This document shows, in pieces, positions 19,382-58,416 of a stretch of DNA of 64,000 nt. The notes beneath the pieces are model-generated. The model searched no databases. It was not told where the DNA came from and was given only the letters and a program-made list of their open reading frames with translations. The DNA comes from Prorocentrum cordatum. Taxonomy: Eukaryota. Both the position numbers and the translations under genes were made by a program. The stretch lies in assembly GCA_963575745.1 (NCBI GenBank), contig CAUYUJ010000179.1:1-64000 (forward strand), given 5' to 3'. Positions within the stretch are counted from its first letter, which is position 1, and every line of letters begins with the position of its first letter.

Positions 19382-19419
<38 letters not shown>

Positions 19420-24094: not shown

Positions 24095-24212
24095 CAAACC
24101 CACACACGCACACGCACACGCACACGCACACCCACAACAACATGCACACGCACACGCGCACGCACACGCACACGCACACGCACACGCACACGCACGCGCA
24201 CACGCACACGCA

Positions 24213-24278
<66 letters not shown>

Positions 24279-24580: not shown

Positions 24581-24581
24581 A

Positions 24582-25460: not shown

Positions 25461-25484
25461 ACACAGACACACACACACACACAG

Positions 25485-25525
<41 letters not shown>

Positions 25526-29037: not shown

Positions 29038-29135
<98 letters not shown>

Positions 29136-31155
29136 GAACCTTAATTACTAAACAATTATTATTGTTGGACCCCCTATATTCGCCCTGGCGCTCTCGCCGA
29201 GGCGCCGGCCGCATTTCCTCTGAAATTGAGGATCACGCTCAAGCGTTTTGGGGTTCCGCCAAAACCGGCTCCCCAACAACAACAACGCTCCGGCTCGAGA
29301 CTTCCTCCTTTTTTACTCGGGCTCGGTGCTCTTGCTCGCCGCCGAGGGCGGCTCCCGGGCCGGACGCCCGGGTCGGCGCTCGAGCCGGCGCCCGGGCGCC
29401 AGAAAATCGAGTTCCGAGGCGGCGCCGAAAAAAAACCATTCCAATACACATTTTTCTTCCGAAAATGCTGAATTTCTGCTTCCGGCGCCCGGGAGGCCGT
29501 CCTGGGCCGATTCCAGAGCCTGGGCCGGCCCGGCTCCCGGGCCGGACGCCCGGGTCGGCGCCCGAGCCGGCGCCCGGGCGCCGGAAAATCGAGTTCCGAG
29601 GCGGCGCCGAAAAAAGGCCATTCCAATACACATTTTTCTTTTGAAAATGCTGAATTTCTGCTTCCGGCGCCCGGGAGGCCGTCCGGGCCGATTCCGGAGC
29701 TCGGGCAGGCACCCGGCCCGGCCGGCACCCGGCCCGGCTCCCGGGCCGGACGACCGGGCAGTTCCGATCGCGCCGAAAAGAGGCCATTCCAATACACATT
29801 TTTCTTTCGAAAATGCTGAATTTCTGCTTGCGGCGCCCGGGAAGCCGTCCTGGGCCGATTCTGGAGCGGCTTTGGGCCGGACGCCCGAGCCGGCGCCCGT
29901 GCGTGGTGCTTCTCTGCTTCTGGCGCCTGCGCAGCTTCCCGAGCCGCTTCTGGAACCATATCTGGGCCGGTCCAGCGATAGGTTTCCTGGATGTGCTGAA
30001 CCATCAAACTTTTTGAGACTTCTGCGTCTCAAGGATAGGGAGAGAAGACATTAAAGGAGGATCCAAAAGCAACGTCGCTATGAACGCTTGGCTGCCACAA
30101 GCCAGTTCTACTTACCTGGACTACTACTACCGTTACCACTACTACTAGTGCTACAGCCGCAACAACAATATCATCAACTGCTGCTACTACAACTACTCAT
30201 CCTTCCTCCCCCTCCTCCCCCTCCCTTCTCCTCCTCCCCCTCCCTATCTCTCTCATCTCCCCCTCCTCTTCCTCTTCCTCTCCCTCTGAGATGCGGGGCA
30301 TGCGCAAGGCGATTGCGAAGGCGATGTGCCGTCCGAGCTATGGATGTTGAAGTTCCTCGGAAGAGGTGGTGGCTAAACCTTCTTGGGCGGGATATCTGGG
30401 TGAGGGAATATCGGATCCCGCATGCCAGAAAAATCCCCCATGATGGGGTGTGTTATCCAGATGGATGCATGTGTCATGTGGAAGCATGGCGCATGAGGGT
30501 AAAATGATTGTTGTTGTTGTTGAACATTATTACTTCTAAAGAATAATTATTGTTGGGACCCCTGGTGCGCGACCCCCCTCCAAAACCTAGGCCGCAGCTA
30601 CATTTTCATCATTTTTTTGCGAAAGCTTCAGAAAAGTGAATTATTACCGGATCCGGTTGTTTTGTTGTACTCCGTTTTCCCTTGCAAAAAACACTATAAA
30701 ATGAAACTTCTTGTTCTTACTTGATCAAATTGCAAGAATCCCTTGCAAAAAATAAGGTAAAGTGGACATTCGTGCGCGCAAGACGAAATCCTTCCAAAAC
30801 CTTAGGTTTCGTAGCGATTTTAACATAAAAACATCAAAAACCCAATGGTTTTTTAAGAAAAAATTGTCAAAATTTTCTTCCGCGCGCTCTTGCGGATTCG
30901 TAGGAAAACCAACACTTTTTAAACAATTCTGTCAAACGGGCTTTTGCGAGCAACTTTTTCGAACTTCTGCGACAACGTTTGCGCACCTGCCAGGGCCATC
31001 ATCCCTGTCAAATAATACCATGCGGGACATATTCGTTTTTTCTTCGCGCGCGCACGCCGAAATCTCCAAAAATCATTGGGTTTTTAAGAATTTTTAGCAC
31101 CGCGCATCATAAAATCACACGAATCGCACCGTAGCTCTCCTCTGGCTCTCTGTCT

Positions 31156-31189
<34 letters not shown>

Positions 31190-31507
31190 GTCTAGCTCTC
31201 TCTCTCTCTCTGTCTTGCTCTCATATCATGCGCAACAAATGCACGATGCGGGGCACATGTGGGGCCCAAACAAGTGATCAACCTCTGCGGGTGTGTACTC
31301 CACGCCAGTGTAGTATCCACGATCGTCCGCGCGCCACGAAGTGAAGTGTCCTGACGTCATAGGGCGGGAAGCTGGGTGTGGGTGGTTCCCGAGAGTCGTG
31401 TGGATGTTTGGTAGAGCTTGCATTGCCCCCCCACGAAGTGGGGGTATTGGCTGGCGTCGCATGAAAACCCTGGCCCTGGGGAGAACACTGAGCGTTCGGG
31501 TAAAATG

Positions 31508-31546
<39 letters not shown>

Positions 31547-34500
31547 GAACATTATTTCTTCTTAAGAATAATTATTGTTGGGACCCCTGGTGCACGACCC
31601 CCCCGCCGCGCCTAAGCCGCAGCCTCATTTTCATCATTTTCGTGAGGAAGTCTCAGGCAAAACGGGGGAGTCCGGATCCGGTTGTGTTGTTACGATCGGT
31701 TTTCCCTTGCAAAAAATAAGCTAAAGTGGACATTTCTTGTTCTAACATAACCAAACTTCAAGAATCCCTTACAACAAATAAGGTAAAGTGGACATTCGCG
31801 CGCGCAAGACGAAATCCTTCCAAAAACTTAGTGTTCGGAACGATTTTAACATAAAAACATCAAAAAACCAATGTTTTTTCAACAAAAAAATGTCAAAATC
31901 TCATCCCGCGCGCTCTTGCGGATTCGTCGGAAAACCAACACTTTTTAAACATTTCTGTCAAACGGGCTTTTGCGAGCAACTTTTCGAACTTCTGCGACAA
32001 CGGTTGCGCACCTGCCAGGGCCATCATCCCTGTCAAATAATACCATGCGGGACACATTCGTTTTTTGCGCGCGCACGCCGTCGTCGTCGGCCGCGGGGCC
32101 CTGAATAGTAGCCACGGTCGTCCGCATGCCTCGAAGTGAAGTGTCCGAACGTCATAGGGCGGGAAGCTGGGTGTGGGTGGTGGCGAAGAGTCGTTTGGAA
32201 ATTTGGTAGAGCTTGAACCGGCCCCCCCACAAAGTGGGGGTATTGCCCGCCTCCTATGAAAACCCTGGCACTGGTGAGAACGGAGTGTCCCCACGTGCTA
32301 GTAATTGTTGTTGTTGTTGTTGTGGTTGTTGCTGTTGTGGTTGTGGTTGTGGTTGTGGTTGTGGTTGTGGTTGTTGTTGTTGTTGCTGTTGTTGTGTTTG
32401 TTGTTGTCGTGATTGTTGTGATTGTTGTTGTCGTTGTTGTTGGTGGTGTGGTTGTTGTTGCTACTGTTGTTGTTGAATTCTCATTCCTGAAGAATAATTA
32501 TTGTTGATCCCCCCCACTGGTGCATACTGTTTTTCTCAATCAAAGTGTGCCCCTCGACGCTCGCACCCTGTTTTTTGACAGGGGAAGTCTTGATGCTCAA
32601 ACTGGGCCCCTGGCCCCCGGGTTACAACAACAACAACGGCTCCCGCCTGAGGCTTCCTTGCAATTTAGCCAAGACCCCCGCTCCCGCCCGAGACTTCCTC
32701 GCATTTGATTTAGGAATCGCGCTCTCGCTAGGAACTTCTTTTAATTTATTCAGGAATCGCTCTCCCGGCGCTCTGGAGTCGCGCTCTCGCTGGAGACTTG
32801 CTTGCAATTTACTGAAGAATGGCCTTGCGTTGGAATTTCCTGCAATTTACCCAAGCGCTGCGCTTCCGACACCCAGGCACCCAGGAGTCGCGCCCATTGT
32901 GGCCCCATGTGCGTGCCCTTCGTGGCCCCGCTGTCGCCATTTGGGTCCCCCTCACTGTCCTACGTGGCCCAGTTGCTACCCTCAGTGGCCCCATAGTTGC
33001 CTTCTGTGGCCCCGCATTATCTGCACTTCGTGGCCCCCGCTCGTTCGCGCTCTTCGTGGCCCCATACGCATTCCCTTCGTGTCCCCGCTGTCGCCCTTCG
33101 TGGCCTACTTCGTGCCCTTCGTGGCCCTGCTGTCGTTCTCTCTCGCTCTCGCTTTCGCTCGTCGTCGCCGTCGTCTTCGACGTCGCCGTCGTCTTCGACT
33201 CCGTCGTCGTCGTCTTCGTCGTCGTCGTGGTCGGTCCCCTGTCCGTCCCTCTTGGGGTCGGGTCGACGGTCCGCGGCCGCCCCGCCGATCAGCGCTGCCG
33301 ATGGCCAGGCCGACGGTCCGCGGCCGCCCCGCCGCTTGTTGGGGCCCGGCCTGCAGGGAAAACAGGTATACCCCCCAAAAGGGGTTCGATCGAAGACGAA
33401 TAGGGCGGGTATCGAGGGTTTCGGAAATACGCGTTATTGGACACTCGAGCATATAAGGGCGAACAGTCTTAAAATTATTGTTGAATTCTCATTCTTAAAG
33501 AATCATTATTGTTGATCCCCCCCCACCGGTGCACATCGATTTTTCAATTGAAGTGCCCCCCCCGGGGCTCGCACTTTGTTTTTTGTCAAGGAAAGTTTTC
33601 CTGCTCAACCTGGCCCCCTGGCCCCCGGGTTACAACAACAACGGCTCCCGCCTGAAATGTCCTTACAATTTAGCCATGACCCCCGCTCCCGCCCGAGACT
33701 TCCTCGCATTTTATTCAAGAATCGCGCTCTCGCTTGGGACTTCCTTACGATTTATTCAGGAATCGCTCCTCCTGCGCTCTGGAGTCGCGCTCTCGGTGGA
33801 GACTTGCTTGCAATTTACTGAAGAATAGCGCCCTTGCGTTGGAATTTCTTGCAATTTACTCAAGCGCCGCGCTCCCGACATCCAGGCACCCAGGAGTCGC
33901 GCTCACGCTTAGGACTCCTTCACAGATTACCTAGGAATCGGGATCTCGCTGCCCTTCGTGGCCCCGTTGCAGCCCTTCGTGGCCCCCTCGCTTTGTTTCG
34001 TGGTCCCGTTGCAGCCCTTCGTGGCCCCCTCGCTTTGTTTCGTGGCCCCGTTGCAGCCCTTCGTGGCCCCCTCGCTTTGTTTCGTGGCCCCGTTGCAGCC
34101 CTTCGTGGCCCCGTTGCAGCCCTTCGTGGCCCCCTCGCTGCCCTTCGTGGTCCCGTTGCAGCCCTTCGTGGCCCCCTCGCTTTGTTTCGTGGCCCCATAT
34201 ATGTATGCCCTTCGTGGCCCCCGCTCGTTCGCGCCCGTGGTGGCCCCATATGCATGCCCTTCGTGGCCCCCTCGCTGCTCTTCGTGTCCCCGTTGCTGCC
34301 CTCAGTGGCCCCGTCCGTACCCTCCGCGGCCCAACATACGTATGCCCTTCGTGGCCCCCGCTCGTTCGCGCCCGTTGTGGCCCCATGTGCATGCCCTTCG
34401 TGGCCCCGCTGTCGCCGTTTGTGGCCCCCTCATTGTCCTACGTGGCCCAGGTGCTACCCTCAGTGGCCCCATCGTTGCCTTCTGTGCCCCCGCATTATCT

Positions 34501-34679
34501 GCACTTCGTGGCCCCCGCTCGTTCGCGCTCTTCGTGGCCCCATACGCATTCCCTTCGTGTCCCCGCTGTCGCCCTTCGTGGCCTACTACGTGCCCTTCGT
34601 GGCCCTGCTGTCGTTCTCTCTCGCTCTCGCTTTCGCTCGTCGTCGCCGTCGTCGTCGTCGTCGTCGCCGTCGTCTTCGA

Positions 34680-34715
<36 letters not shown>

Positions 34716-36270
34716 GTCGGTCCCCTGTCCGTCCCTCTTGGGGTCGGGTCCGACGGTACGCGCCGCCGTGCCGAATCGAGCGCTGGTACGCCCTGGCCAG
34801 CCGCAGAGCCGTCCCGCGTATAGGCCGCCCCGCCGCTTGCCGGGGCCCGGCCTGCAGGGAAGAAAGGTATACCCCCCAAAAGGGTTCGATCGAATACGAA
34901 AAGGGCGGGTATCGAGGGTTTGGGAAATTCGCGTTAGTCGACACTCGAGCAGATAAGGGCGAACAGTCTCAAAATGATTGTTGTTGTTGTTGTCTTTGTT
35001 GTTGAACTCTCATTTCTGAAGAACAATTATTGTGGATCCCCCCACCAGTGCATACTGTTTTTTGTCAATCAAAGTGTGCCCCTCGACGCTCGCACCTTGT
35101 TTATTTTTCAGGGAAAGTCTTGAGGTTCAAACTGGACCCTTGGCCCCCCGGATTATAACAACAACGGCTCCCGCGTGAGACTTCCTCACAATTTAGCCAG
35201 GACCCCCGCTCCCGCCCGAGACTTCCTCGCATTTTATTTAGGAATCGCGCTTTCGCTAGGGACTTCATTTTTATTTATTCAGGATTCGCTCTTCCGGCGT
35301 TCTGGAGTCGCATTTGCTTGCAATTTACTGAAGAATAGCGCCCTTGCGTTGGAATTTCTTGCAATTTATTCAAGCGCCGCGCTCCCGACACCCAGGCACC
35401 CAGGAGTCGCGTTCACGCTCAGGACGATCTCGCTGCCCTTCGTGGCCCCGTTGCAGCCCTTCGTGGCCCCCTCGTTTTGTTTCGTGGCCCCGTTGCAGCC
35501 CTTCGTGCCCCCCTCGCTGCCCTTCGTGGCCCCCTCGCTGCCCTTCGTGGCCTCGTTGCATCCCTCCGTGGCCCCCTCGCTGCCCTTCGTGGCCCCATAT
35601 CTGTATGCCCTTCGTGGCCCCCACTCGTTCGCGCCCGTGGTGGCCCCATATGCATGCCCTTCGTGGCCCCGCTGTCGCTATTCGTGGCCCCCTCGCAGCC
35701 CTTCGTGGCCCCCTCGCTGCCCTCAGTGGCCCCGTCCTTGCCCTCCGCGGCCCAGTATAGGTATGCCCTTCGTGGCCCCCGCTCGTTCGCGCCCGTTGTG
35801 GCCCCATGTGCGTTCCCTTCGTGGCCCCGCTGTCGCCGTTTGTGGCCCCTTCACTGTCCTACGTAGCCTAGTTGGCACCCGCAGTGGCCCCATCGTTGCC
35901 TTCTGTGGCCCCGCATTATCTGCCCTTCGTGGCCCCCGCTCGTTCGCGCTCTTCGTGGCCCCATACGCATTCCCTTCGTGTCCCCGCTGTCGCCCTTCGT
36001 GGCCTACTTCGTGCCCTTCGTGGCTCTGCTGTCGTTCTCTCTCGCTCTCGCTTTCGCTCGTCGTCGTCGTCGCCGTCGTCGTCGTCGCCGTCGTCGTCGT
36101 CGACGTCGTCGTCGTCGTCGTCGTAGTCGGTCCCCTGTCCGTCCCTCTTGGGGTCGGGTCGACGGTCCGCGGCCGCCCCGCCGATCAGCAATGCCGGTGG
36201 CCAGGCTGACGGTCCGCGGTCTGTTTTTTGTTTGTTGTTTGTTGTTTGATGTTTGTGATTTGTTGTCGTC
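26830..36270 (-). repeat. Second array of the same (GTT)n-delimited module families, with internal CTTCGTGGCCCC short repeats
   Basis: Same junction motif at about 27232, 28267, 29134, 30520, 31545, 32473, 33481 and 35002. Near-identical spurious ORFs recur (e.g. 20091 and 32213). Confidence 0.85.
29345..29900. repeat. GC-rich tandem repeat, unit about 175 bp, 3 copies
   Basis: CCATTCCAATACACATTTTTCT..GAAAATGCTGAATTTCTGCTT occurs three times. Confidence 0.9.
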
Positions 36271-36600
36271 GTCCCGCCCGCGACCCGGCCCGCGACCCAC
36301 CCGCGACCCACTCGTGACGCACCCGCGGCGTACCCGCGACCCACCTGTGACCCATTCCCGACACATCCCGCGACCCACCCCCGACCCATCTGCGACAACA
36401 CTGCGACCCGCCCGTAAACCCGCGACCCACGGCGCGACCCGCCCGCGACCTATCCGCGATCCACCCGCGACCCACCCGCGACCCACGCGCGACCCACCCG
36501 CGACCCACGCGCGACCCACGCGCGACCCAGGCGCGACCTACCCGCAACCCACCCCGCAACCCACCCCGCGACCCACCCGCGACCCACCCCACGCCCGCCG
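36270..36600. repeat. CGCGACCCACC short tandem repeat
   Basis: Direct reading. Confidence 0.9.
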
Positions 36601-36682
36601 TCTCAGTCGTATCCGCAACTGCGGTGTGCTAATACTTACGGGCGCTTCAAGAGAGAGAGAAATATAGATAAACAAAAGAAAT

Positions 36683-36722
<40 letters not shown>

Positions 36723-37290
36723 AGAGAGAAATAAAGAGTCAAGCTTCGGGGTCATAAGCGAGAAGGGCGTCTCAAGCGAAGTGCACTGCCCGCCGTGCCG
36801 ACACGTGTGGTGGTCAAAGCAGGGGAAGTTAACTATAAGGAAACAGAAGTTTAGGACGAGGAGGAAATGCTGGAGGAGCAGGATCGGACTCCCCACGTCC
36901 TCCTTCCCCCTCCACCTCCCTCCCACCTACCTGGCACCCCCCTTCCTACCAGTCCTTTCTTCCTGTCTCCTTCTTCCCTCCCGCCCTCCCCCCTCAGCCC
37001 TCCCTTGCCCTGCCGCCCTCGCTCTCCAAGCCTTCCTTCCCCCCCTCTTCCTTCCTGCCCTCCTTCAGCCCCCGCTCCCTGTTCCGCCTCCCTCGCGCCC
37101 CCTTCCTCTCAGTCCTTCCTTCCCTCCCTCTTCTCCCCGCCCTTCCGCCTCTGCCCCTCCCTGTTCTCCCCCCCTCCCCCCTCCCTTTCTGCCCATTCTC
37201 CGCCCTGCCCCTGTCCAGGGGCAGGGGGCAGAAACCTGGCAAGCGGGCGCCCTTGGGGTCGGCCCCCGCTCGAGGGGTGCGGGCCGGCGG

Positions 37291-37322
37291 ATTCCTACGT
37301 CCGCGAGGACGAGCGGGGCGAC
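37291..37322 (+). CDS. NMT: N-myristoyltransferase exon d (5' boundary non-canonical, 37291-37293)
   Basis: Encodes (Y)SYVREDERGD, filling the gap between VVY and [10 protein letters not shown] donor at 37323. No AG at the required acceptor position. Confidence 0.78.
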
Positions 37323-42378: not shown

Positions 42379-42495
42379 GTGAATGACTTCCTCTCGTTCT
42401 ACTCCCTGCCCTCCAGTATCCTCAACAACCCGAAGCACGACAACCTGCAGGCGGCGTACTCGTATTGGAACGTCGCGACCACGGTGCCGCTGCAG
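42379..42495 (+). CDS. NMT: N-myristoyltransferase exon e
   Basis: CAG|G acceptor. Encodes [39 protein letters not shown], with the NMT DFxSFYxLPS and AAYSY motifs. AG|GA donor. Confidence 0.95.
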
Positions 42496-42694: not shown

Positions 42695-42734
42695 GACCTG
42701 ATGTACGATGCCCTCATCCTCGCCAACAGGCTGG
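42695..42734 (+). CDS. NMT: N-myristoyltransferase exon f
   Basis: AG|G acceptor after a pyrimidine tract. Encodes [13 protein letters not shown] (NMT LM-x-DALILA). GT donor at 42735. Confidence 0.92.
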
Positions 42735-44333
42735 GTCCAGACGGCTCTGCCCCAGGCCGCCCTGCAGCAAGAGAAGGGGACGGCAAAGAAAGCAGGGAGG
42801 AGGGGCAGGCGATGGGGAGAGGACGGGGGAGTATCGGCGGCGGGATCAGGAGCAGAATGAGCCGGCGGTGGCGGTGACGATGACGACGACGATTGGGGCG
42901 ATCAGGAGGGGGACGAGGAGGACGAGGACGGGGGCGGATGGCGAGGGTGAGCACGAGCGGGACGATGATGTGGGGGATGAGGGAGGGTGGGCGAGGGTGG
43001 GCGAGGGACTAGCGGGCATCGGTGGGAGGAGGAGGAGGAGAAGGCAGGGATGAGGAGGAGGAGGAGGAGGAGGATGACTTGAGGTAATATGGCTTTGGGC
43101 CGCCTGAACCTCGCCAGTGGGCCCAGTTTCCTGGTGTCACCAGCCTGTAGGGCACGGTGGCCCGACGAAGCAACGTGGCCATCTTGGTCCAGACACTGCG
43201 GGAAGGTAGACGACGCATGAGAACCTGACGCGATATGTGTCGCCTATCCTCGTGCAGAGAGGGAAAAGTGAAGAACTTCTCAGAAAATGGATGTCGAGAG
43301 CTATGCGTTCTTGTGGGAACCTGGTGAAGGCATGCGTAGGTTAGCTCCTGGCACACAGGTTAGCTGGGCAGCTCACCGGTGCACTCTTGCCTCTTTCTCT
43401 TCCAGTGCGATGCATTGCATCGTGTTGCCGCAGGGGCCCACATGCCCCAGGTGACCAGAAAACGTTTCCCGTTTTCTGGCTGGAGTTTCCGCCAGTGCTA
43501 AGGAGACCACTCATTGATGTGACAGGGGGCATGATTTGTCCGCCCCAGCGTGTCCTCATAAGCACTGGGCAAACTAGGTCCCTATAGGGCTCTCACCAAA
43601 GGGGGGTGGCCTCCTAAGGTGCTCATGTGCGTGCTTCACGCTCGGGCGCGCGCCGATTAACAAATCCTCTGGTGTGCCTACATGAAAACTCTGATGAGGC
43701 AAACTATCGTGGTGCAAAGTCCAGAGTGCGATCGACGCACCATCTCCGTGACATTTGGAGGGGGCAGGATTTTTCCGCCTCTGTTTCGCCTACACGTTGC
43801 CATTGGGTTGGAGGGTAACCTGTCTGGACGGGCCAAGCTTCGCTTTCTGGTATTGTGCGGTGCTGTGATGTGTGGTGCGTGAGGCAGCCTGTGACATTAA
43901 TGGAGTGGCGTGTGAAAGATTGCTCCAGTGGGTGTGGGATTGGGGCGTGTGACAGAGTGCCATCCGTGTTGGTAGTTCAAGTCCTCAGCTCCCCAATGAC
44001 AGGGCCAGAGATGTTTCGTGACAATTTCGTGCCCGTATGTCGTCTGCTGGACCAGACGGCAACTCCTCCAACTGGGCGGTTGCCTTCCGACCTGACTGCT
44101 GGGGTGGAAATTGGGAACCAGCCGAGGCGGATACACGCCTCCGAAGCTAGTTGAATTTCATGCGGATCGTCTACGAGGGTCTCCTACAAAAGAATTACCC
44201 TTAGGTCCTGGAATTGGCTCAAGGCCCGGCTCAAGGCCCGGCGCGGCTGGATTAATCCAGCCCCCTTGGATTAATCCATTCCCCTACTGTTATTCTCTCA
44301 CCATACCCTTTCCCTTACCCGCTTGCTGCCGCG

Positions 44334-45332
44334 ATGCCGGCAGAGAAGCACCACATGGGGACGCCACTCGGAGGAGAGCGTAAGCAAGCTCGCCTCGATT
44401 CTCCACTGGACCAGATGGATGGCGACAACGAGGTTGGCGGAGGTGGAGGAGCAGGCAACACTAGCCAGGAAGACATGGACGTAAAGGAGATGATGAGGGT
44501 CATGATGAAGGACATGAAGGAGATGAAACTGATGATAACGAGGAGCGAGAGGATTGCGCAGGAGGCTAAGGACGAGGCGACGTCGGCGAAACAGTCGGCA
44601 TTCAAGGCGACCTTGGACATCAGCGGCCTGGAGGACAAGTTCGATAAGTTCCAGCAGTCGGCCGTTACGAAAGAGGACGTGACCAGGATGATCGAAGAGA
44701 CGATGTCTCAATGCACTACTCCGCGCAACTTGGCTACGACGTCCATTCCATCCACAGCAACGGCCGTCGTCGGGAACGTGCCCAACGCAACGACCTTTGA
44801 GGATGCAGCGAAACGGGCATCTACTCTCTGCATGGACCATGGCCTTCCAGCCCTGGCGGCCCGGAACATGTACTGCAAGAGCGAGTTCAAGGGCGTGTTC
44901 TTTGTCAAATTGATGTCGGACGCGTCGCGCCAGATGTTCCTTGACACTGTCAACTCGTTCGCGAGAGGGCAACCGGGGGGCTTCGGGAACACTGTCTGGG
45001 CGAAGCCGGACCTCCCTTTCGACATCCGCATGCAGCACGGCGTCCTTTTCGGGCTCCGCCGGCTGCTGGCGACGTGGGGCTTCAACAAGACGTGCGTCAA
45101 GGTCAACACGGATGACTCCTCCTTGTCTGTCGCAGGGACCGTGGTGGCCAAGACGGTGGTGAAGGACTACCAGCTGGAGCTGAAGTGGGTGGACCAGGAG
45201 TGGGGGAAGTGGGATGCACTGCAGTCGTCTTCAGAGCTCTCCGAGATCACCGCCGGCGCCCAGGGGAAGCTCGACAGGGCGAAGGCCTTCCTCGAGAGCA
45301 AAGGGAAGGGGAAAGGCCCTGGACTCCACTAG
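44334..45332 (+). CDS. LINE ORF1-like protein (332 aa, coiled-coil-like N-terminal half)
   Basis: Uninterrupted, high-complexity ORF directly upstream of EN-RT; ends in KGKGKG. Confidence 0.75.
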   Translation: MPAEKHHMGTPLGGERKQARLDSPLDQMDGDNEVGGGGGAGNTSQEDMDVKEMMRVMMKDMKEMKLMITRSERIAQEAKDEATSAKQSAFKATLDISGLEDKFDKFQQSAVTKEDVTRMIEETMSQCTTPRNLATTSIPSTATAVVGNVPNATTFEDAAKRASTLCMDHGLPALAARNMYCKSEFKGVFFVKLMSDASRQMFLDTVNSFARGQPGGFGNTVWAKPDLPFDIRMQHGVLFGLRRLLATWGFNKTCVKVNTDDSSLSVAGTVVAKTVVKDYQLELKWVDQEWGKWDALQSSSELSEITAGAQGKLDRAKAFLESKGKGKGPGLH

Positions 45333-48232
45333 GGGTCACAGCGGTGTGTGGGCGAATGCGACGTTTCACCCCTCGTGGCGGGGAGCGGCGAGGAGGCGGA
45401 CCTGTGCGAAGATGCGGGCCGCCACAGTTTTGACAGTTTGGTGAGGATTTGCTCGTGGAATGTTGAGGGAATGACGGATTTAAAGGAGGGCGAAATTTGC
45501 AGATATATGCGTGCGACTGCCATCGATATTGTATGTATGCAGGAGACGCACCGGCCAAACTCTGACCACTACGACACAGAGGACGGATATCTGGTGATCC
45601 TGTCGGGCAGTGCTGGGGTCCACCGCGAATCAGCCGGAGTGGGTTTTGTAGTCGCTCCACAGATGAGGCGTAGAATTTGCGGCTACTGGCAGTTCGACAA
45701 CCGAATTGCTACGATTAAGATCCGCACAGTCTATGGTAATATTACGCTGTGTACTGTTTACGCTCCACACAACGAGAAACCCACAGAGGAAAAACTCGAC
45801 TTCTACGATCGTCTTCAGCGCCACGCACGCTGTCGGATTATCACAGTATGGTCCTAGATATTTCTTCGGGGATTGGAATGCGAGGCTAGGCAAAAGACGT
45901 GCTGGGGAGGAGGACATAATGGGCGAGTACACGTTTGGTCGCGAGGCGAAGAGAAAGGTCGACCTTCCCAACCGGGACTTGTTTACAGAATTCTGCATGG
46001 ACCTCCAGCTCCTCGTGGCGAACACGCTGAAACTCCACCCGGCCGATCAGACAGCGACGTGCCATGAACCATCCGTTCGGCCTGGCAGTCCAATCAACGA
46101 CGTCGGCTTCAATGTCTTGGATTACTTGGTTATTCCTGCTGCTCGCGAGCAGGACCTTGGAGATATTCGAAGCGACACCTCTGCTACTCTAGCTTCACAT
46201 CATTTCCTTGTGCTGGCAACCATTGTGGCGGGCGCGCCAGAGACCTCTGAGCGCCGGCCAGCAAACCGGCGGAAGAATTGGGCCACCCTGCAATCGCCAT
46301 CTGGGAGACGAGAGCTCACGAAAGAAGTTGGACGTCGCATGGAAGAGTCCGCAGGGTTACATAGTTTAACGCTGAGCTGGAAGACGGCGTCTGCGCCTGT
46401 CATGGCGGCCGCGGACACCGCCGTGCCATATTTTCCATGCGCAAGCCGAACAAACCCTGGATCTCAGAGCGCACGCTGGCACTCATCACCCAGAGACGCC
46501 ATGCGCGAACTGCAGGCGATTGGAGCGCCGAGCTGCGACTGAGAAACTCCGTGAAGCAGTCGGCCAAGCAAGATCGCAGTACGTGGCTTGAGAATCTGAC
46601 AGCTACTGGAGACTGGAGTTGCATCAACAAGATATCAAAGGGCAAGGGCCGGCCGCAAGGGCGACTTCACAATCGAAACGGCGATCCGGTTACGACAGAC
46701 GAGCGCGCGGAGACATTCGCGGAGCACCTCAGCAATATCCAGTGGCACGTGCGCCCTACAACTCTGACGCCAGTCACAGACGATGCGATCTACCAGGCGT
46801 TGAACGTGAATCTGGATCGCTTTACGGATGCAGAATTACGGCGTGCCTTACAGAAGTTACGCCCTGGAAGATCTTGCAAAAGAGGGGGCATCCCAGTAGA
46901 AGTTTACAAAGCTCTCGCTGCTGAGCCAGGGCACTTGAAGTGGTTGCTCGACATATGCAATGCCGCGTGGGTGGAGAAACACCTGCTGGATGATGGGTGC
47001 GAGTCTCATGTGAGCTTACTCTACAAGAAGGGCGACCCAGCAAATCGCGACCACTACCGGCCCTTGTCGCTTCAATGCGTCGCCATGAAAGCATTCTCCG
47101 CCATGCTCAAGTAGAGGCTCCTGGACGCGGGCGTGGATGAGAGATTGTGGGCGTCCCAATTTGGTTTCCGACCTGGTCGCAGCACCGAGCGCACCATCTA
47201 TGTTGCCCTGAGGCGCATAGAAACAGCCAGGGCGAAAAAAGGAGGGGCTGTCACCCTGGTGGCGCTGGATTGGAAGAAGGCATTTGACAGCGTACACATA
47301 GAGAGCCTGCTGGGCGCGTTACGGCGGATTGGCGTTCCATCTGAGTTCCGGGAGATGGTCGGTGTGATGATGGAGAGAAGGATGTTCGTGGTGAGGGAAT
47401 GCGACAACCAGTCCGCTCCCAGACCCCAGCTTTCTGGGATCTCACAAGGTTGCACCCTCAGCCCGCTGCTGTTCGTCCTGGTCATGACTGTGCTCTTGCA
47501 CGATGCCGCCTCGAAGCTTACCGGTGGAGCAGAGGAGGCGCGCGTCAAGGGCGACGTGTCCGAGTGCGTTTACGCAGACGACGCGCTCTGAATCGGCTCC
47601 AATGAAGAGCACTTGAACGAGCTTCTGGGTGCCGTTGCCTCCGCGGGCACGCGCTACGGAATGGAGTTGCATTGGGGCAAGTTTCAGGTGCTCGCAGTTC
47701 AGTCGAAGGGCGAGATATACGCCCCTGATGGTACTGCCCTCAGCCATGTGCAGCACGTAGAATACCTTGGAGCACATCTGTTGGCAGATGCAGACATGGG
47801 CCACGAATTGGGCAGAAAAATCGGAGAGGCCAAAAGGAATTTCACAACGTTGCGAAAAGTCTGGTCGCATTCTTCCTTGACCTGGCCACGAAAGCCGCGG
47901 ATTTACACATCGATTGTGGAGTCTAAATTATTATGTGGGCTAGCAGGGTCGTGCCTGACAAAATCGCAGCTGCGGCGGTTGGGCGGCTTCCCGAACAGGT
48001 GTGTCTGGCAGATCATAGGCGTCCGACCTTCATGGATTTCGCGCGTACGGAACACAGACGTGCTGAGCCGTGCAGACCACGCCCCAGCGAGCCAGCAACT
48101 TCTACGCCGGCAGCTCCTGCTCTTCGGTCAAGTGCTACGCGCCGATCGAGGACACCCGCTGCGGACGTGCACGTTCGCTTCCGGCTCACTGACACCACAG
48201 ACAGATGCTACAACGAGGAGGGTTGGTAGGCC
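45333..48232 (+). pseudogene. LINE ORF2 (APE endonuclease + reverse transcriptase), disrupted
   Basis: EN motifs SWNVEG, MQET, GVGF, VYAPH, GDWNA, LDY. RT motifs KKGDP..YRPLSL, QFGFRPGRS, LDWKKAFDSV, GISQGCTLSPLLF, YADD, YLG. Frameshifts near 45830 and 46435; in-frame stops at 47112 and 47589. Confidence 0.93.
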
Positions 48233-48369
48233 ATTGGTAGCACGGCAGCAGCCGAGGTTGCAGCGCAAACTTGCCAATACGATCGTACTATACGCGCCCT
48301 GTTTTAATTCCACGTGCACTCCTCCTCCTCCTCCTCCTCCTCCTCCTCCTCCTCCTCCTCCTCCTCCTG

Positions 48370-49500
48370 GTCGTCCCAGTGTGACCCATTTGCGCGCCGT
48401 TCCCGTTCGTGGTGCCCTGAGCCCCCGGCGCAGAAGTGCAGCTTCTCACTGGTAGCCGACTGCAGTGTCCCGGCGTGCAGCCAAGGCCCTGGCTCTTCTT
48501 TAAGCCAGCGTTCATGCCCACGCACCGCTTGGTGTATGGTTTGTCAGTCAGCCTGGAATCCTCCCTTCTCTAAGAGGGGGCGGACCGTTGTCCAGGCATC
48601 CCCATTAAAGGTGCAGAGGGACATCGCCGCAGAACTCTGTGGGATGACCAGTGCTGACAAGACTGGCCGGGGCTCAGGGGGTATTGTTGCCCTAATTCTG
48701 GGCCGCCCTCTGCCCTTGCGGCGGCGGCGGTCGGCTCGCCTCTCCCCAACCCAACGCGGTCGTTACCTCGTCGGGGGCGGCGCCGATTGGCGGGAGCGGG
48801 CAGTCGCCTCCACGTCCATGGCCGCCGGGGCTGCGGGCGCGCCGGGATTTCTGGGGGCGCCCGGGCTGCGCTCCCCGCGGCGTCGGCGCTCGCCTCGCCG
48901 GCGAGCTGCTCTGTGGCCTCCTCTTTCCGCCTCGGAGGCTGCGGCGACCAGGAAGATTTTCGAGGCACATTTTGCCTCTGGGCCCGTGCCGGGGACTGGT
49001 GGTTATGGTTCTTCTGACTCCGGAGGCTTGTTGGTGGTGCCTCCAGTTCTGTGGGGTGCTCCGTCTGGATGTTGATGTCGGGATGCTTGCGGAGGAAGTC
49101 CACAGTGTCTGCCACGGTGGGCTTCTTAACCCCCGCGGTTATCGGCGGATCCATTCGCAGCTTGAGGGCCTTCTGCTGCTCCCGGGTTGCGCGGATGTCC
49201 ATGACGAGATTGAATCTGGGCGGACATGGCGGCGTGCTTGCCGCAAAGGCCGTCGATCTGGTCGCCTATGGACTCCATGTCTGTGATCTCTTGATCGAGC
49301 ATCTTCTTCACTTTTGAGCGCCGCGCAGTGACCGCCTGGTACTGGTCTGAAGTGCTCAAGGCTAGAAACTCCTTCTCGAGGCGCTTCAAGCGTTCCGCTG
49401 CTGCCAAGTAGTTCTGGTTTGCCCTTGCCGTGCCCATCTTGGCATGTTGCTCGTAGAAGTTGACCTCGGCCTTGGCCATTGCGACCTTAGAGAGCGGGTG
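48370..49500 (-). mobile_element. Remnant of a second element in opposite orientation (coiled-coil ORF1-like segment plus a possible endonuclease start)
   Basis: Frameshifted high-complexity ORFs 49479-49126 and 49202-49070, followed at 48624 by MSLCTFNGDAWTT, which resembles the first EEP/APE strand motif. Confidence 0.4.
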
Positions 49501-50599
49501 GGTCGGAAGCTTGGCATCTCTCCACGCTGGGCCCTGTGGGGGGTCCTCGACTGCCGCCCCTTTGTGTCTTGTGCGGGGCAGCCGTAGGGCCCGGGGGCTC
49601 TACGGTGGAGTGGAAGGGCGATGGAGCCGTCCTGGTGAAGTCGGAGTTGTCCTTGGCGCGGGGGAAGTGCTGGCCGTCGCGTTCGGGACGCTGTCCCCGC
49701 GGGGGTGGTCGCCGGGTGCTTGGATGGCTAGGCGTCGGTGCTGGCACGGTCGGCGCGGGAGCGGATGCTGGACATTCGTCCCCGCGGCTGCACGTGACAG
49801 GATGGCCCAGTGCGTCCACAGGTGCTCGCTGGAGTACGCCATCGCATCGCGGGTGCGGGCTTGGACGAAGCCCTTTGTTGCCCTCTATGCGATGGGTAGG
49901 CTGAGCCAGGGCCTTCATGGTATGTGCTGTGTGAGTCGGGGCGACGCCGCAACACTTGAGCCTTATCGATTGCGGAGGTGGATGGGGGGTGTTTGCGCAG
50001 GATCCTTCAGAGCTTCGGAAACATTGTATTGCGTCCGCTCTGTCCCACGTCGCCCCACGACCCAACGAGAGATAGGACCCTGTGGATAGTGGCAGCGTTC
50101 ACCTCCAATGGTAGATCTAATTGGGCAAGACAGGTTTCGTTCCCCCGCGGGGCCGGTGAAGCGATGGCAGTTGGAAATTTCTGGGTCCCTGGTGGCCCAG
50201 AGACAATGGAGGGCATCTCAGTTCTGGAGATGTGGCCAGAACTTTGGGGGGCGATGTGGTCTATCCTGGGAGGGTGTGCGCCATCTCGGAGTGGTCCAGG
50301 GAGGGATCTCGTGGTCTTGGGGCTGTCATGGGTGCCATCGAAAGTTCTACTTGGCTGTATTGGGGCCTAATCGGCCGTAGAGGGGGAGCGACCGAAGTGG
50401 CTGCAGGTCCCTCCAGCACCCTTGACTGGCGGAGTGGAGGCCTCAGAGCGGCCGGAGCCTCGATGAGGGAAGGAGGAAGAAATCAGAGGAGAAGGTCCCC
50501 TTGTCACCCCCTAGCGTTGTAGCTGAGAAAGTGGCGTAAGTGGAAAGGGCCGGCGGCCTCGTCGCCGGGTTGAGTTTAGTAGATCAAGGTCCTTTGGTA

Positions 50600-51485
50600 C
50601 GTGTGGAAGGGTATGCAGGACCGCCAGCATTGCCACTGGGCGGTGTCCTTGAGGCCAATGCCTCGTGTCTCGCAGGTGGAGTGGCTGTGCAAAATGGGGT
50701 GAAAGCAGGATCGCCGGCATTGCCGCCAGGCTGTGTCCTGGAGGTCAGTACTTCTGGTGTGCGAGTGTGGAGTGGAAGCGAGACCACCAGTATTGCCGCT
50801 GGGCTGTGTTCCGGAGGTCAGTACCTCTGGTCTGCGAGTGTGGAGTGAACGTAGTACCGCTGGCATTGCCGTCGGGCTTTGTCTCGGAGGTCAGTAATTA
50901 CCTTGGTGTGGGAGTGTGGGACGACAGGAGGACCGCTGGCATTGCTGCCGGGCTGTGTTCCGGAGTTCAGTGCTTCTGCGCTGAGCGAGTGTGGAGTGAT
51001 AGCAGGACCGCTGGCATTGCAGCTGGGCTGTGTCCTTGAGCTCAGTACCTCTGTGGTGAGCGAGTGTGAAGTGATAGCAGGACCGCCAGCTCTGCCGCTA
51101 GGCTGTGTCCTGGAGTTCAATACCTCGGTGGTGCGAGTGCGGTGTGGATGCAGGACCGCCAGCATTGCCGCCGGACTGTCCTGGAGGTCGGTACCTTCTG
51201 TGGTGTGCGGGTGACGATTGAAGGCAGGACCGCCCGCATTGCCGCCGAGCTGTGTCCTGGAGGTCAGTACCTCTCGTGTGCGAGTATTGAGTGGAACCAG
51301 GACCGCCGGCATTGCCGCCGGGCTGTGTCCTGGAGGTCAGTATCTCTGGTGTGCGAGTGTGGTGTGACAGCAGGACCGCCGGCATTGCCGCTGGGCTGTG
51401 TCCTGGAGGTCAGTACCTTTGGTGTGTGAGTGTGGAGTGGAACCGGGACCGCCGGCATTGCCGCCGGGCTGTGTCCTGGAGGCCA
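50600..51485. repeat. Minisatellite, unit about 72 bp, about 12 copies
   Basis: GGACCGCCGGCATTGCCGCCGGGCTGTGTCCTGGAGGTCAGTACCT recurs (e.g. 51309, 51382, 51454). Confidence 0.93.
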
Positions 51486-52812
51486 GCCAGCATCCTTGCT
51501 GGCCCCTTGCCGCCGTCTCGCCGCTGCTCACTCCGACGGGGGCTCGGCTGGGGTGCTCGTCGGGTGTGGCTAAGCCGCACCCTCAGTGACGCCCCGTGCG
51601 TCCCCAGCCGATTCCCCCAGAGGAGTTTGGAGCAGCAGTGGCACGGGGAGGAGGAGGAGGAGGAGGAGGAGGAGGAGGAGGAGGAGGAGGACGAGGAGGA
51701 GGAGGAGGAGGAGGAGGACGAGGGGGGGGAGGAGGAGGAGGAGGAGGCGGAGGGCGGCGGCGATGACGATGGCGATGGCAGTGGTGATGGTAACGACGAT
51801 GGTGGTAATTCTGTTGCTGATGCTGATGCTGCTTGCTGTGAGAACGAGCAGGAGGATGCGGAGAGCGAGGATGGGCAATTAGATGAGGAGGAGGATGAGG
51901 AGGGCGATGAGCAATCAGAGATCGTCAATGCGGACAATGATGACGCTGCTGATGATCAGAGCGTGAATTACCTACCCTGCTTTCGCTTCCAGGCAACGCC
52001 AAGCCATACCACGCGCCTCATCGTCGAGCGGCCTGACCAGTACAGGCTGCAATTTGGCATCGTTTGGTATCTCTTGGAAGCGAGGGTGGTCAAAGGCGCG
52101 GTAGGTTTGTTTTCCCCCTAGATGATGCTGATGATGATGCTGATGATGATTATGCTGATGTTGATCATGCTGATGATGATGATGATGATGATGAAGAAGA
52201 AGATGCTGCTGCTCCTGATGATGATGCTGCTTCTGCTGATGCTGCTGCTGATATTGATGATGATGATGATGCTTCTACTGCTGCTGATGACGGTAGTGGC
52301 GTTGATGATGCTGCTGCTGACGACGACGACAACGACCACGACGACGATGATTATGATGATGACAGTGATGGTGATGAAGGTGCTGAAGATGCTGCTGATT
52401 ATGATGACGACGATGACGATGACGCTGCCGATGATGATGCTGATTTTGATGATGATGCTGATGATGATGCTGGTGGTGGTGAATATGATGATGATTATAT
52501 GATGCTGATGATGCTGACTAACACGATTATGACGATGATGATGATAATGCTGATGCTGATGACGATACTTATGATGATGGAACTGATGATGCTGATGCTA
52601 ATGATGCTGCTGCTGATGATGATGATGATGCGGATGCGGGTGATGGTGATGATGATGGTGACGATGACAATGATGATGCTGATGATGATGATGCTGATAC
52701 TGATGCTGATGATGATGCTGATGCTGCTGATGATGTTGATGATGTTGATGATGCTGCTGCTGATGATGGTGATGATGATGCTGATGATGATGCTGATGAT
52801 GATGCTGATGGC

Positions 52813-52855
<43 letters not shown>

Positions 52856-53157
52856 CTGATGATGATGTTGATGATGATGGTGATGGTGATGGTCATGTTG
52901 ATGCTGCTGCTGATGATGATGGTGCTGATGATGATGATGATGATGACAACGATGTTGGCGATGTTGATGATGATCAGGATGAGGATGAGGATGAGGAGGA
53001 GGAAGAGCTGGAGGGCGAGCAAGAGAGGGCGCTGATATTTTCTAACAGATAGCGACGTTAGAGGCAGGGACGAGGAGGGAGGGAGGTGAAGATGGTGGTG
53101 GTGGTGGTGGTTGTGGAGTCGCCATGTCCCGATGCGGCCGCTCGCTTGCGGCTCAAG

Positions 53158-53239
53158 CGGGTTTTGATGTCTTCAACGCCTTGAACGTGATGGAGAACGA
53201 CCAGTTCCTGAAGGAGCTCAAGTTCGGCATCGGCGACGG
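53158..53239 (+). CDS. NMT: N-myristoyltransferase exon g (start 53158 if AG is used, 53161 if non-canonical)
   Basis: Encodes [26 protein letters not shown](G), containing the NMT FDVFNAL motif and the KFGxGDG signature. GC donor at 53240. Confidence 0.96.
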
Positions 53240-54945: not shown

Positions 54946-54956
54946 GTTCCTGCAGT
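54946..54956 (+). CDS. NMT: N-myristoyltransferase micro-exon h (11-13 nt)
   Basis: Pyrimidine tract then CAG|G. GTTCCTGCAGT supplies (G)FLQ(Y), giving GDG-FLQY-YLYNW in the required phase. Confidence 0.75.
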
Positions 54957-55404
54957 ATCCGCGGGGCCGAGCGCCGTTACTCCGGGCTCCCACAGTGTCC
55001 CCAGCCCGCTCCGCTTCAGGGCAGAATGAGGAGGGAGGAGGAGGAGGAGGAGGAGGAGGAGGAGGAGGAGGAGGAGGAGGAGGAGGAGGGATGATGCGGA
55101 CGAGGGGAACAGGATGAGGCGGAGGAGGGGAGAGTGTGGAGGAGGGATGGATGATGGTGAGGATGTTGTTGAGTGTGATGGGAATGGTGATAAAGAGGTC
55201 GCTGATGGTGAAGATGTTCGTGCCGATGATCATGATGCTGATGATGCTGCTGCTGATGCTGATTCTGATGATGATGCTGATGATGATGCTGATGATGGTG
55301 GTTAGTGTGGTGCTGCTGCTGCTAACGATGACGACGACGATGATGCTGCTGATGATGATGAGGATGGTGGTGGTGGTGGTGGGGGTGATTCTGAGGATGA
55401 TGAC

Positions 55405-55462
<58 letters not shown>

Positions 55463-55596
55463 TTGAGGATGACGATGACGACGATGATGATGATGGTGAC
55501 GATGACGACGATGCTACTGCTGATGATGGTGATGATGTTGAAGATGCTGCTGCTGCTGATTATTGGTGGTGATGCAAATGCTGATGCTGAAGATGG

Positions 55597-55640
<44 letters not shown>

Positions 55641-56522
55641 CGACCGAGGACGACGGTTATGATGCTGCTGCTGCGGTGATGGTGATGATGATGATGATGA
55701 TGATGCTGCTGATGATGATGATGATGATGATGATGATAATGGTGTTGTTGGTGGTGGTGGTGATGATGAGTGTCAGGGTTGTGATGATTATGGTGGTGGT
55801 AACCATGACGATGATGATTATTCTGGTTATGATTAGCGGCCTGTTGATGACATCGAGAGTTGGGTTACCAGACGAAGGATGATGGTATTGCCAAGCTGAT
55901 TGCAGATTATAAGTGAGGGCTGGTGATGATGATGATGATGATGATGACGATGATGATGATACTGATGATGATTCTGATGATGGTGCTGTTGCTGATGATG
56001 GTGATGATGACGATGATGATGATGACGAGCATGTTGCCAACAAGTGCTAGCAGGGCATGAATGTATATTTTGATGCTGATGGTGATACGTGTGCTGACGA
56101 TGCGTATGATGATAATTCTGATGATGATGCTTGGGATGATGACGATGCTGCTGCTGATGATGCTGATGATGACGATGATGATGATGATGACGATGATGAT
56201 GACGACGATGCCGACAGTGGTGGTCGTGATGGTGATGCTGATAATGATGATGATGATGATGATGATGATGCTGCGTCGGATGCTGCTGCTGTTGATGCTG
56301 CTGATGATGCTGATGATGATGATGATGACGATGGTGATGATGATGATGATGATGCTGATGCTGATGCTGATGATGATGATGACACTGGGTTGATGGTGAT
56401 GATGCTGCTGTTGCGATGATGGTGGTGATGCTGATGCTGATGACGGTTATTATGCTGCTCCTGCGGCTGATGATGATGATGACAGTCATGATGATAATGA
56501 TGATTGTGATGATGATAATGAC

Positions 56523-56562
<40 letters not shown>

Positions 56563-56563
56563 T

Positions 56564-56595
<32 letters not shown>

Positions 56596-56601
56596 ATGAT
56601 T

Positions 56602-56670
<69 letters not shown>

Positions 56671-56676
56671 TTCATG

Positions 56677-57290
56677 ATTCCCTACCTAGGCTCTGCCTAG
56701 AAGGGCTCTTACTCTCTGGGCTTAAAGGGGCCGGGCAGTGAAAAGCGCCCCGGGCGGTTTCCCCATTATCCGCCCTGCGATTCCCCCAGTTACGTCCCTT
56801 AGCTCAGCGTTGCTTATCTCATCTTAGCTTAGCTTATTTCATCTTAGCTTAGCTTAGCTTCATCTTAGCTCAGGTTTATCTTAGCTTAGCTTCCCTTCAT
56901 CTTAGCTTCGCTGAGCTTTAGCATAGCATAGCATTAGCATGGGTGTAATTCCCTACCTAGGCTCTGCCTAGAGGGTTAGCTTAGCTTAGCTTAGCTTAGC
57001 TTAGCATAGCGCAGCACTGCATTAGCATAGCATAGCATAGCATAACATAGCCAAGCATAGCATAGCATAGCATAGCATAGCATAGCGCAGCATAGCATAG
57101 CATAGCACAGCATAGCATAGCATAGCGCAGCTTAGCATAGCATAGCTAGCATGGCACAGCGCAGCATGACATAGCATAGCATAGCTTAGCGCAGCATAGC
57201 ATAGCATAGCATAGCGCAGCACAGCATAGCATAGCATAGCATAGCATAGCGCAGCATAGCATGGCATGGCATAGCATAGCATAGCATATC
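56677..57290. repeat. ATTCCCTACCTAGGCTCTGCCTAG direct repeat (56677 and 56948), each followed by (CTTAG)n/(CATAG)n pentamers
   Basis: Direct reading. Confidence 0.85.
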
Positions 57291-57939
57291 TCCAATTTCT
57301 AGCTAGGGTCGCACTGGGATAATAATGCTGATGATGATGCGGATGGTAATGATGACGATAATGCGGATGATGATGCTGCTGATGATGATTATGATGATGA
57401 TGATGCTGATGATGATGATGATAGTGATGCTAGTGATGATATTCATGATAGTGATGATGATGGTGATGATGATGTCGATGATGATGGTGATGGTGACGGT
57501 GATGGTGATTGTGATACTGCTACTGCTGCTTCTGATGATGATGACGATTGTGATGGTAATGGTGATGGTAATAGTGATGGTGATGGTGATGGTGATGCTG
57601 CTGCTGATGGTGATGATGATAATGATGATGATGATGATGATGATGATGGTGGTGATCGTAATGACGAGGATGTTCTTGATTGGGACGATGCTAATGTTGA
57701 CGATAACGATGATGGTGATGAGGAAGATGATGATAACATTGGTGATGATGATGACGATGATGATGATGATGATGATGCTGGTGGTGGTGATGATAGTGAT
57801 GATGGTGGTGGTGATGATGATGATGATGGTGATGATGATTACTATGATGATGACGATGCTGCTGATGATGATGATGGTGATGATGGTGATGATGAAGATG
57901 AAGATGAAGATGAAGATGAAGATGAATCGATGATGATGC

Positions 57940-57975
<36 letters not shown>

Positions 57976-58351
57976 GTATCATTATTTTTGGAAGACGAGG
58001 CGCGGCATGAGGAGCTAAATGAGGAGGTGGCATGATGATGCTGGCAATCTCAAGCAGACGAACATAATGGGAGTACGTAATGGGAGTACGATTATTCACC
58101 GCAGGATGACATGCAATATGGTATGTTGCTGCTGATGGCGATCAGCCTGGCGATCATAATGAGGAAGACGGGGTTCAGTATGGTGGGATCGGGCTGCGGG
58201 GTGATAGTAAGGATGATGGTGTTGATGTCGATACTGAGGAGAAGCAGGATGAGGATGAGGATGATGAGGAGGAGGACGAGGAGGAGGAGAGGAGGAGGAG
58301 GAGCGTGGACACCATCGCCGCAGATGGGCCTCTGTGCCCTGGCACCGGCGG

Positions 58352-58416
58352 ACTACCTCTACAATTGGAAGTGCCCTAAGATCGATCCTGGCGGCGTCGG
58401 GTTGGTGCTTCTGTGA
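58352..58416 (+). CDS. NMT: N-myristoyltransferase last coding exon i (5' boundary non-canonical)
   Basis: Encodes (Y)YLYNWKCPKIDPGGVGLVLL-stop, the typical NMT C-terminus. Confidence 0.95.

Follow-up and report, generated by a model that had tools for sequence, protein, structure and literature searches.

Candidate structured non-canonical introns sharing an end motif in an N-myristoyltransferase gene of a dinoflagellate

The first 64,000 nucleotides of contig CAUYUJ010000179.1 (assembly GCA_963575745.1, Prorocentrum cordatum), hereafter the window, carry an interrupted gene that is, judged by sequence comparison, the C-terminal half of N-myristoyltransferase (NMT), spread over nine exons and eight introns, here lettered A to H. 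Two of these introns, C (21.5 kb) and H (3395 nt), lack the ends of an ordinary dinoflagellate intron in every register that preserves the protein, share T/ATCCG on the 5' side and CCGGCGG/A on the 3' side (a slash in a motif marks the boundary throughout), and have ends that can pair with one another. We propose, with a probability of roughly 0.58, that C and H are structured non-canonical introns similar in type to those described from Amoebophrya and the euglenids, that they belong to a functional NMT gene of a dinoflagellate, and that they probably go back to insertions into exons. An earlier reading of the same DNA (the original prediction) had drawn attention to H and to the likeness of its boundaries to those of the longer intron, and its claims are taken up below where the evidence bears on them.

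The join required across intron H

A search with the last-exon stretch returned two proteins, P0002 (159 aa) and P0003 (373 aa), both of which have NMT domains and which share a C-terminal ending of 31 residues. When these were aligned to the window with tblastn, nine collinear exons were recovered on the + strand between 2857 and 58416. The Pfam NMT_C model gives a weak match (E 0.15) to the 20 residues that follow the 3' boundary of H, which are the end of the domain. A scan of metagenome contigs yielded 80 related loci, among them L001, a 1329-nt contig that aligns to the same exons free of introns at 85-98% nucleotide identity (blastn) and continues for 46 nt beyond the stop codon, to 58462, into the 3' untranslated region; this intron-free alignment and its extension past the stop indicate that L001 is the mRNA of a close relative. 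At the junction of H, P0002, P0003 and L001 all read the same 12 residues, and the spacing from GDG to YLYNW is exactly four residues in 79 of the 80 related loci, the remaining one (L055) having no match. The collinear L001 mRNA and the invariant spacing together require the join FLQY/YLYNW, in agreement with the original prediction, which had held that joining the two sides restores a conserved motif.

The boundary sequences quoted in that prediction are present exactly as written: CTGCAGT/ATCCGCGGGGCCGAGCGC at 54950-54974 on the 5' side, and GTGCCCTGGCACCGGCGG/ACTACCTCTAC at 58334-58362 on the 3' side. Over the join, the L001 mRNA reads ...CTGCAGTATTACCTC..., or, in a fuller stretch, ...GACGGGTTCCTGCAGTATTACCTCTAC.... 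Ns in the window are confined to two runs (20950-21049 and 37632-37731), so that H is free of assembly gaps, as had been stated. The exon upstream of H is a micro-exon and is the sole acceptor-bearing site coding for FLQ/LQY between exon 7 and the last exon; it is preceded by a C-rich pyrimidine tract and then CAG, and 13 nt at this position are identical in the L001 mRNA. One point of the original prediction needs correction: the micro-exon measures 11 nt (54946-54956) when intron G is read as GC-AG, and the exact cut within the Tyr codon is ambiguous.

Every protein-preserving pair of donor and acceptor within +-8 nt was enumerated for all eight introns. A reading with a GT, GC or GA start and an AG/G end exists for A, B, D, E and G, and for none of C, F and H. 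Intron H admits three protein-preserving registers, 54957-58351 (AT..GG), 54958-58352 (TC..GA) and 54959-58353 (CC..AC), among which its exact cut is ambiguous, and in each of them both the start and the end dinucleotides depart from the dinoflagellate type. The last register would produce CAG TAT TAC in the mRNA, identical to L001, and the other two CAG TAC TAC; Tyr codon usage is uninformative on the choice (TAT in 3 of 10 Tyr codons of the window's coding sequence). Intron C also has three registers, starting like those of H with AT, TC or CC, never with GT, GC or GA, and ending in GG, GA or AT; all three produce one and the same mRNA. The repeat at the boundaries of H is a single A and that of C is the 2-nt AT; neither contains AGG.

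An end motif common to introns C and H

The hexamer TATCCG occurs at nine + strand sites in the 64,000 positions of the window, including 15771 and 54956, and CCGGCGGA occurs at four, including 37284 and 58345; the claim that H repeats the donor and acceptor motifs of the 21.5-kb intron is therefore upheld at both ends. By arithmetic from these site counts, the chance that a second intron carries both motifs at its junctions is ~1e-8 per site pair, and it stays below 1e-6 once the seven other introns and several registers are allowed for. The motif shared by C and H is far beyond chance, and two identical motifs of 6 + 8 nt also make sequencing error an unlikely cause, as had been argued.

The further suggestion of an introner family finds no support within the window. 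Beyond the motif, local alignment scores of C against H lie within the null, blastn-short gives no match, and alignments anchored on the flanks are not significant (5' flank p 0.11, 3' flank p 0.45). Nor are the motifs enriched in the window when one mismatch is allowed, the counts of 10 and 16 falling below the expected 14.0 and 19.5. Inside C there are two more + strand pairs of the form TATCCGCGA...CCGGCGGA, at 22127-22735 (609 nt, end duplex -12.8 kcal/mol) and at 36451-37291 (841 nt, end duplex -26.2 kcal/mol), the second of which has its 3' end in common with the intron itself. TATCCG lies within 1 kb upstream at two of the four CCGGCGGA sites, which is not significant by our estimate; these pairs may be nested units, decoy units or products of chance.

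Pairing of the intron ends

Duplex formation between the 5' end of each intron (5 exon + 25 intron nt) and its 3' end was set against ~1500 pairs of sites drawn at random from the window (mean -11.7 kcal/mol, sd 6.2). The end duplexes of C (-27.5 kcal/mol, p 0.013) and H (-27.0 kcal/mol, p 0.014) stand out from this null, bearing out the pairing first noticed for H; intron F pairs moderately (-22.2 kcal/mol, p 0.057), and the five canonical introns range from p 0.18 to 0.63. In H, 5' UCCGC pairs with 3' GCGGA, giving five perfect pairs at the extreme ends that are followed by further GC-rich pairs broken by bulges, and in C there are 4 + 7 pairs; the ends of neither intron hold an uninterrupted inverted repeat of at least 8 nt. 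Both introns pair G(-2)G(-1)A(exon +1) to U(+2)C(+3)C(+4); in the middle register the intron then becomes a stem with blunt ends, 5'-UCC...GGA-3', in which one cut lies across from the other.

We infer that RNA would be spliced at these sites under the direction of the stem together with the short motif TAT CCG ... CCGGCGGA(Y), the paired ends holding both junctions face to face at its base. Removal could be the work either of a spliceosome able to act on a 5' site that does not begin with G or of a separate machinery; much the same has been proposed for the introns of Amoebophrya and the euglenids, for which the matter is still unsettled. The introns most likely originated by insertion into exons of ordinary size; when merged, the exon pairs now split by C, F and H measure 69, 119 and 76 nt.

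Layout of the gene and other features of the window

The coordinates of exons, introns and boundary motifs are collected in Table 1.

Table 1. Exons, introns and boundary motifs of the NMT gene in the window.
Feature	Position	Strand	Remarks
NMT exon (…EAPKLAGVRALRSEDIPR)	2857..2910	+	tblastn with P0002/P0003, register enumeration
Intron A	2910/2911-12978/12979	+	readable as GA-AG/G
NMT exon (VTELLSGYLKKFPLHPELNLDE)	12980..13045	+	tblastn
Intron B	13046-15734	+	GT-AG/G
NMT exon (VSHWILPRDGVV + T of Tyr codon)	15735..15771	+	ends in TATCCG (15771-15776)
Intron C, 21.5 kb, non-canonical	15772..37290	+	T/ATCCGAG...GGGCCGGCGG/AT; slides 0-2 nt; N gap 20950-21049
NMT exon (AT of Tyr + SYVREDERGD)	37291..37322	+	tblastn
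Intron D	37323-42378	+	GT-AG/G
NMT exon (VNDFLSFYS…TTVPLQ)	42379..42495	+	tblastn, blastn with L001
Intron E	42496-42694	+	GA-AG/G
NMT exon (13 residues + G of Gly)	42695..42734	+	tblastn
Intron F, 10.4 kb, non-canonical	42735..53160	+	at best GT...GG, boundary repeat GGGT; carries decayed LINE
NMT exon 7 (26 residues + GG of Gly)	53161..53239	+	tblastn, blastn
Intron G	53240-54945	+	GC-AG/G, C-rich pyrimidine tract
Micro-exon G TTC CTG CAG T (FLQ + first Tyr base)	54946..54956	+	reaches 54958 in other registers
Intron H, 3395 nt, without N	54957..58351	+	three protein-preserving registers
5' boundary motif TATCCG of H	54956..54961	+	identical to 15771-15776
3' boundary motif CCGGCGGA of H	58345..58352	+	identical to 37284-37291
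Last coding exon (AC of Tyr + 20 residues + TGA)	58352..58416	+	tblastn, blastn

The long interspersed nuclear element (LINE) in intron F is a decayed non-LTR (long terminal repeat) retrotransposon with broken frames at 45333-48452 on the + strand, within which Pfam recognises Exo_endo_phos at 45333-45854 (E 5.7e-6) and RVT_1 at 47115-47588 (E 4.7e-22). The 5' side of the same intron reads GTC-CAG. Intron C holds a 154-nt piece of a eukaryotic large-subunit (LSU) ribosomal RNA pseudogene on the - strand at 29954-30107 (Rfam RF02543, 72.9 bits, model positions 2828-2984). Dense microsatellites and low-complexity sequence ((GAG)n, (GAT)n, (CATG/TATG)n and CT-rich tracts) fill most of the long introns, examples of microsatellite tracts in the window being 1-2800, 7300-8700, 55030-55090 and 58760-59720, and in 53000-59000 perfect periodicity is confined to 2.5% of 31-mers, while near periodicity reaches 17%. 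Downstream of the NMT stop codon, at 61198-63695, a 228-bp unit stands in 11 tandem copies that are 99% alike, and a diverged 256-bp form runs on from them to the end of the window; the array has no Rfam match.

State of the gene copy and its host lineage

Once joined, the NMT frame is open over 159 codons and a stop. It is identical to L001 at 150 of 160 aa and 439 of 480 nt, with a nonsynonymous divergence (dN) of 0.033, a synonymous divergence (dS) of 0.32 and a dN/dS of 0.10. The window departs from L001 or P0002 at 11 positions; at three of these (P93, L94 and Y99) it agrees with the majority among 49 other relatives, and N58 is the sole departure from a well-conserved residue. With its open frame, its dN/dS of 0.10 and window-specific residues that are mostly ancestral, this NMT copy looks functional, in which case introns C, F and H must be removed exactly.

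Affinity with the dinoflagellates rests on three lines of evidence. Thirteen of the 78 related contigs placed in a tree, itself the product of a quick maximum-likelihood search only, start with a 5'-truncated remnant of the dinoflagellate spliced leader, the full form of which is printed in PMC12584245; a 15-mer of the leader is found in none of the 80 loci, because the contigs are cut short. In that tree the window and L001 belong to a clade with a Shimodaira-Hasegawa-like approximate likelihood-ratio (SH-aLRT) support of 96, which includes all 13 leader-tagged contigs. A long branch (0.43) joins the pair to the tagged group at its base, which is unresolved. The nearest relatives, L001-L005, have GC-rich 5' ends without a leader remnant, in contrast to those from L006 onwards. 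Among named proteins, the nearest belong to Symbiodinium, Effrenium and Prorocentrum. Leader tags, tree and named relatives together lead us to treat the window as dinoflagellate, and on the same grounds a euglenid origin was rejected.

Alternative explanations and strength of the proposal

The main alternative takes C and H to be DNA transposons of one superfamily, with CCG...CGG ends and a 2-bp AT duplication, lying unspliced in a dead or dying NMT copy while another copy serves the cell. A good deal can be accommodated in this way: the exon pieces on either side of C (37 + 32 nt) and of H (11 + 65 nt) would add up to exons of ordinary size, both can be written as CCG...CCGGCGG flanked on either side by AT (AC instead in H), H has imperfect terminal inverted repeats, the motif is found, among the junctions, at those of C and H only, no identical protein is on record, and gene copies and transposons abound in the genomes of dinoflagellates (PMC10666404, PMC11453091). 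Nevertheless, the nine-exon frame is open and residues specific to the window appear constrained, whereas old insertions in a dead gene would be expected to leave damage in the exons. C and H share only 5-8 terminal bases and so are not recent copies of one element, and C has existed for long enough to have gathered an rRNA fragment and many repeats. The lack of motif enrichment in the window also speaks against a transposon superfamily, and on balance we consider this explanation unlikely.

Other alternatives call on known machinery or on error. An ordinary spliceosome might use canonical or cryptic sites, or proceed by recursive splicing, and an in-frame AG acceptor at 58322-23 and a GT at 54955-56 are at hand; against this, all 191 of the 191 in-frame combinations of a GT, GC or GA donor with an AG acceptor near H put extra residues between GDG and YLYNW, into a spacing that is the same in 79 of the 80 related loci and adjoins the C-terminus. 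The C-terminus of NMT is catalytic. Downstream of the AG at 58322-23 the frame reads MGLCALAPADYLYNW, a ten-residue insert into the conserved motif just as the original prediction had calculated, and splicing by such a route strikes us as quite improbable. We find it very improbable that assembly or scaffolding stitched together exons of different NMT copies, the apparent introns being the joins: the window is extremely repeat-rich and has two 100-N gaps, one of them within C, but there is none in H, the exons are ordered, on a single strand and in frame, and mis-joins would not hit the same 6 + 8 nt motif codon-exactly twice. Barely plausible is a U12-type identity, which is prompted by the resemblance of the shared TATCC to the U12 5' splice site RTATCCTT (the branch site consensus being TCCTTRAC), with GTATCC at 54955-54960 in H and CTATCC at 15770-15775 in C. 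A cut before GTATCC would, however, remove the GT needed by the reading frame, position +1 of C would be C and not R, ends of the AT-AC or GT-AG kind arise in no protein-preserving register, a search of the final 60 nt of C, F and H for a TCCTTRAC-like branch site, allowing up to two mismatches, gave none, and alveolates are reported to have no minor spliceosome (PMC7789003). On inspection by eye, the cut positions did not fit an IRE1-type CNGCNGN site or a bulge-helix-bulge shape, and both ideas were dropped. A scan of the window with Rfam gave no small nuclear RNA, the sole match being the LSU rRNA fragment.

The proposal that C and H are structured introns of a functional gene must itself be set against several points that tell in the opposite direction. 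Very recent inactivation of the gene would be compatible with a dN/dS that is averaged over the whole divergence. No protein in the protein collection is identical to the window's exons (the best reaches 90% over exon 5), and with no identical protein on record the expression of this NMT copy is putative. L001 is 91% identical in nucleotides, at a dS of 0.32, and is known as mRNA only. None of the 24 listed sequencing runs contains at least half of the sampled words, the best shares being 0.24 and 0.20. Intron C spans an assembly gap and misfits the euglenid code set out below in every register, and H fits that code in one register, with a pyrimidine at the start of the exon. Finally, the direct repeats measure 1-2 nt here as against 3-5 nt in Amoebophrya.

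Significance

A bolder extension, which we hold tentatively and in some doubt, is that large-genome dinoflagellates possess a second pathway of intron removal beside the GT/GC/GA-AG spliceosome, specific in both sequence and structure and recognising hairpin ends of the form TAT/CCG...CCGGCGGAY/, close to the euglenid CGG-CCG code. If this were true, C and H (perhaps also F) would be the first cases of it beyond Amoebophrya and the euglenids, and the pathway would be invisible to annotation that admits only GT/GC/GA-AG introns. Aligners and predictors for dinoflagellate gene models have been altered to admit only GT, GC and GA donors with AG acceptors (PMC10666404, PMC5177918), and under pipelines restricted to such motifs introns like C, F and H would break or truncate conserved gene models. 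In a partial literature search, no report was found of hairpin-ended introns without a GT/GC/GA-AG reading in large-genome dinoflagellates. Should the junctions be confirmed by RNA, structured non-canonical introns would not be limited to the small-genome parasite Amoebophrya and the euglenids, and the near fit of H to the Euglena CGG-CCG code would raise the question of convergence versus a shared older machinery. The recurrent motif offers a concrete pattern for genome-wide counts and mutational tests.

Comparison with known intron systems

Spliceosomal introns of dinoflagellates begin with GT, GC or GA and end in AG/G, with identical repeated boundaries of 2-9 nt that contain GG or AGG (Mendez et al. 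2015, PMC5032977; PMC10666404, table 2). Introns A, B, D, E and G belong to this class, with boundary repeats of 2-6 nt; C, F and H differ in that none combines a GT, GC or GA start with an AG end or has AGG in its repeat. The transposon-derived introners of Symbiodinium and Polarella supply or recruit GH...AG ends, make 4-8 nt duplications and form families of hundreds (Roy et al., bioRxiv 10.1101/2020.10.14.339549). C and H are like them in splitting exons as insertions would, in their terminal inverted repeats and in a short target duplication that leaves a single copy in the mRNA, and unlike them in the lack of GH...AG ends, of a 4-8 nt duplication and of further copies in the window. With U12-type introns they have in common the TATCC core at the 5' boundary, but the cut is offset by 1-3 nt, no branch-point motif is present and the ends are neither AT-AC nor GT-AG.

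The nonconventional introns of Euglena follow the code 5'-N3CDG...CH'GN5-6/R, of which a CGG-CCG variant has been shown to splice (Nomura et al. 2025, PMC12501133); euglenid nonconventional introns are also treated by Gao et al. (2024, PMC11170887). As in euglenids, C and H are mixed with conventional introns in one gene, have sliding ends that are not GT-AG and pair at their termini, and H in its register 54959-58353 reads N3-CGG...CCG-N6, the CGG-CCG variant. The 5' N3-CDG of the code is present in one of the three registers of H (CCG-CGG, donor after 54958) and in none of the three of C, which has no CDG at +4 to +6, while CCG-N5 or CCG-N6 stands at the 3' end in two of the three registers of H and likewise of C, complementary to a 5' CGG in H only. 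Further differences are that the downstream exon begins with C or T, not with a purine, in the registers that fit the motif, that the helix extends here to the extreme ends of the intron, and that the host groups with dinoflagellates. Euglenid introns are excised late, as a circle.

Amoebophrya (Syndiniales) belongs to the same broad lineage as the window. Its non-canonical introns, or introner elements, whose splicing at such ends is shown by RNA reads, carry hairpin-forming inverted repeats of 8-20 nt, direct repeats of 3-5 nt and A/T-rich motifs (with a TTA or TAT start); those studied measure 40-1000 bp, lie in genomes of ~100 Mb and fall into many repeated families, and their mechanism is unsolved (Farhat et al. 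2021, PMC7789003). Introns C and H depart from this pattern in their lengths of 3.4 and 21.5 kb, in a GC-rich motif, in a direct repeat of 1-2 nt and in the absence of a repeated family detectable within the window. They agree with it in having no fixed end dinucleotides, in their complementary ends and short direct repeat at the boundaries, in a hairpin predicted to bring the exons together, and in their occurrence alongside canonical introns in the same genome.

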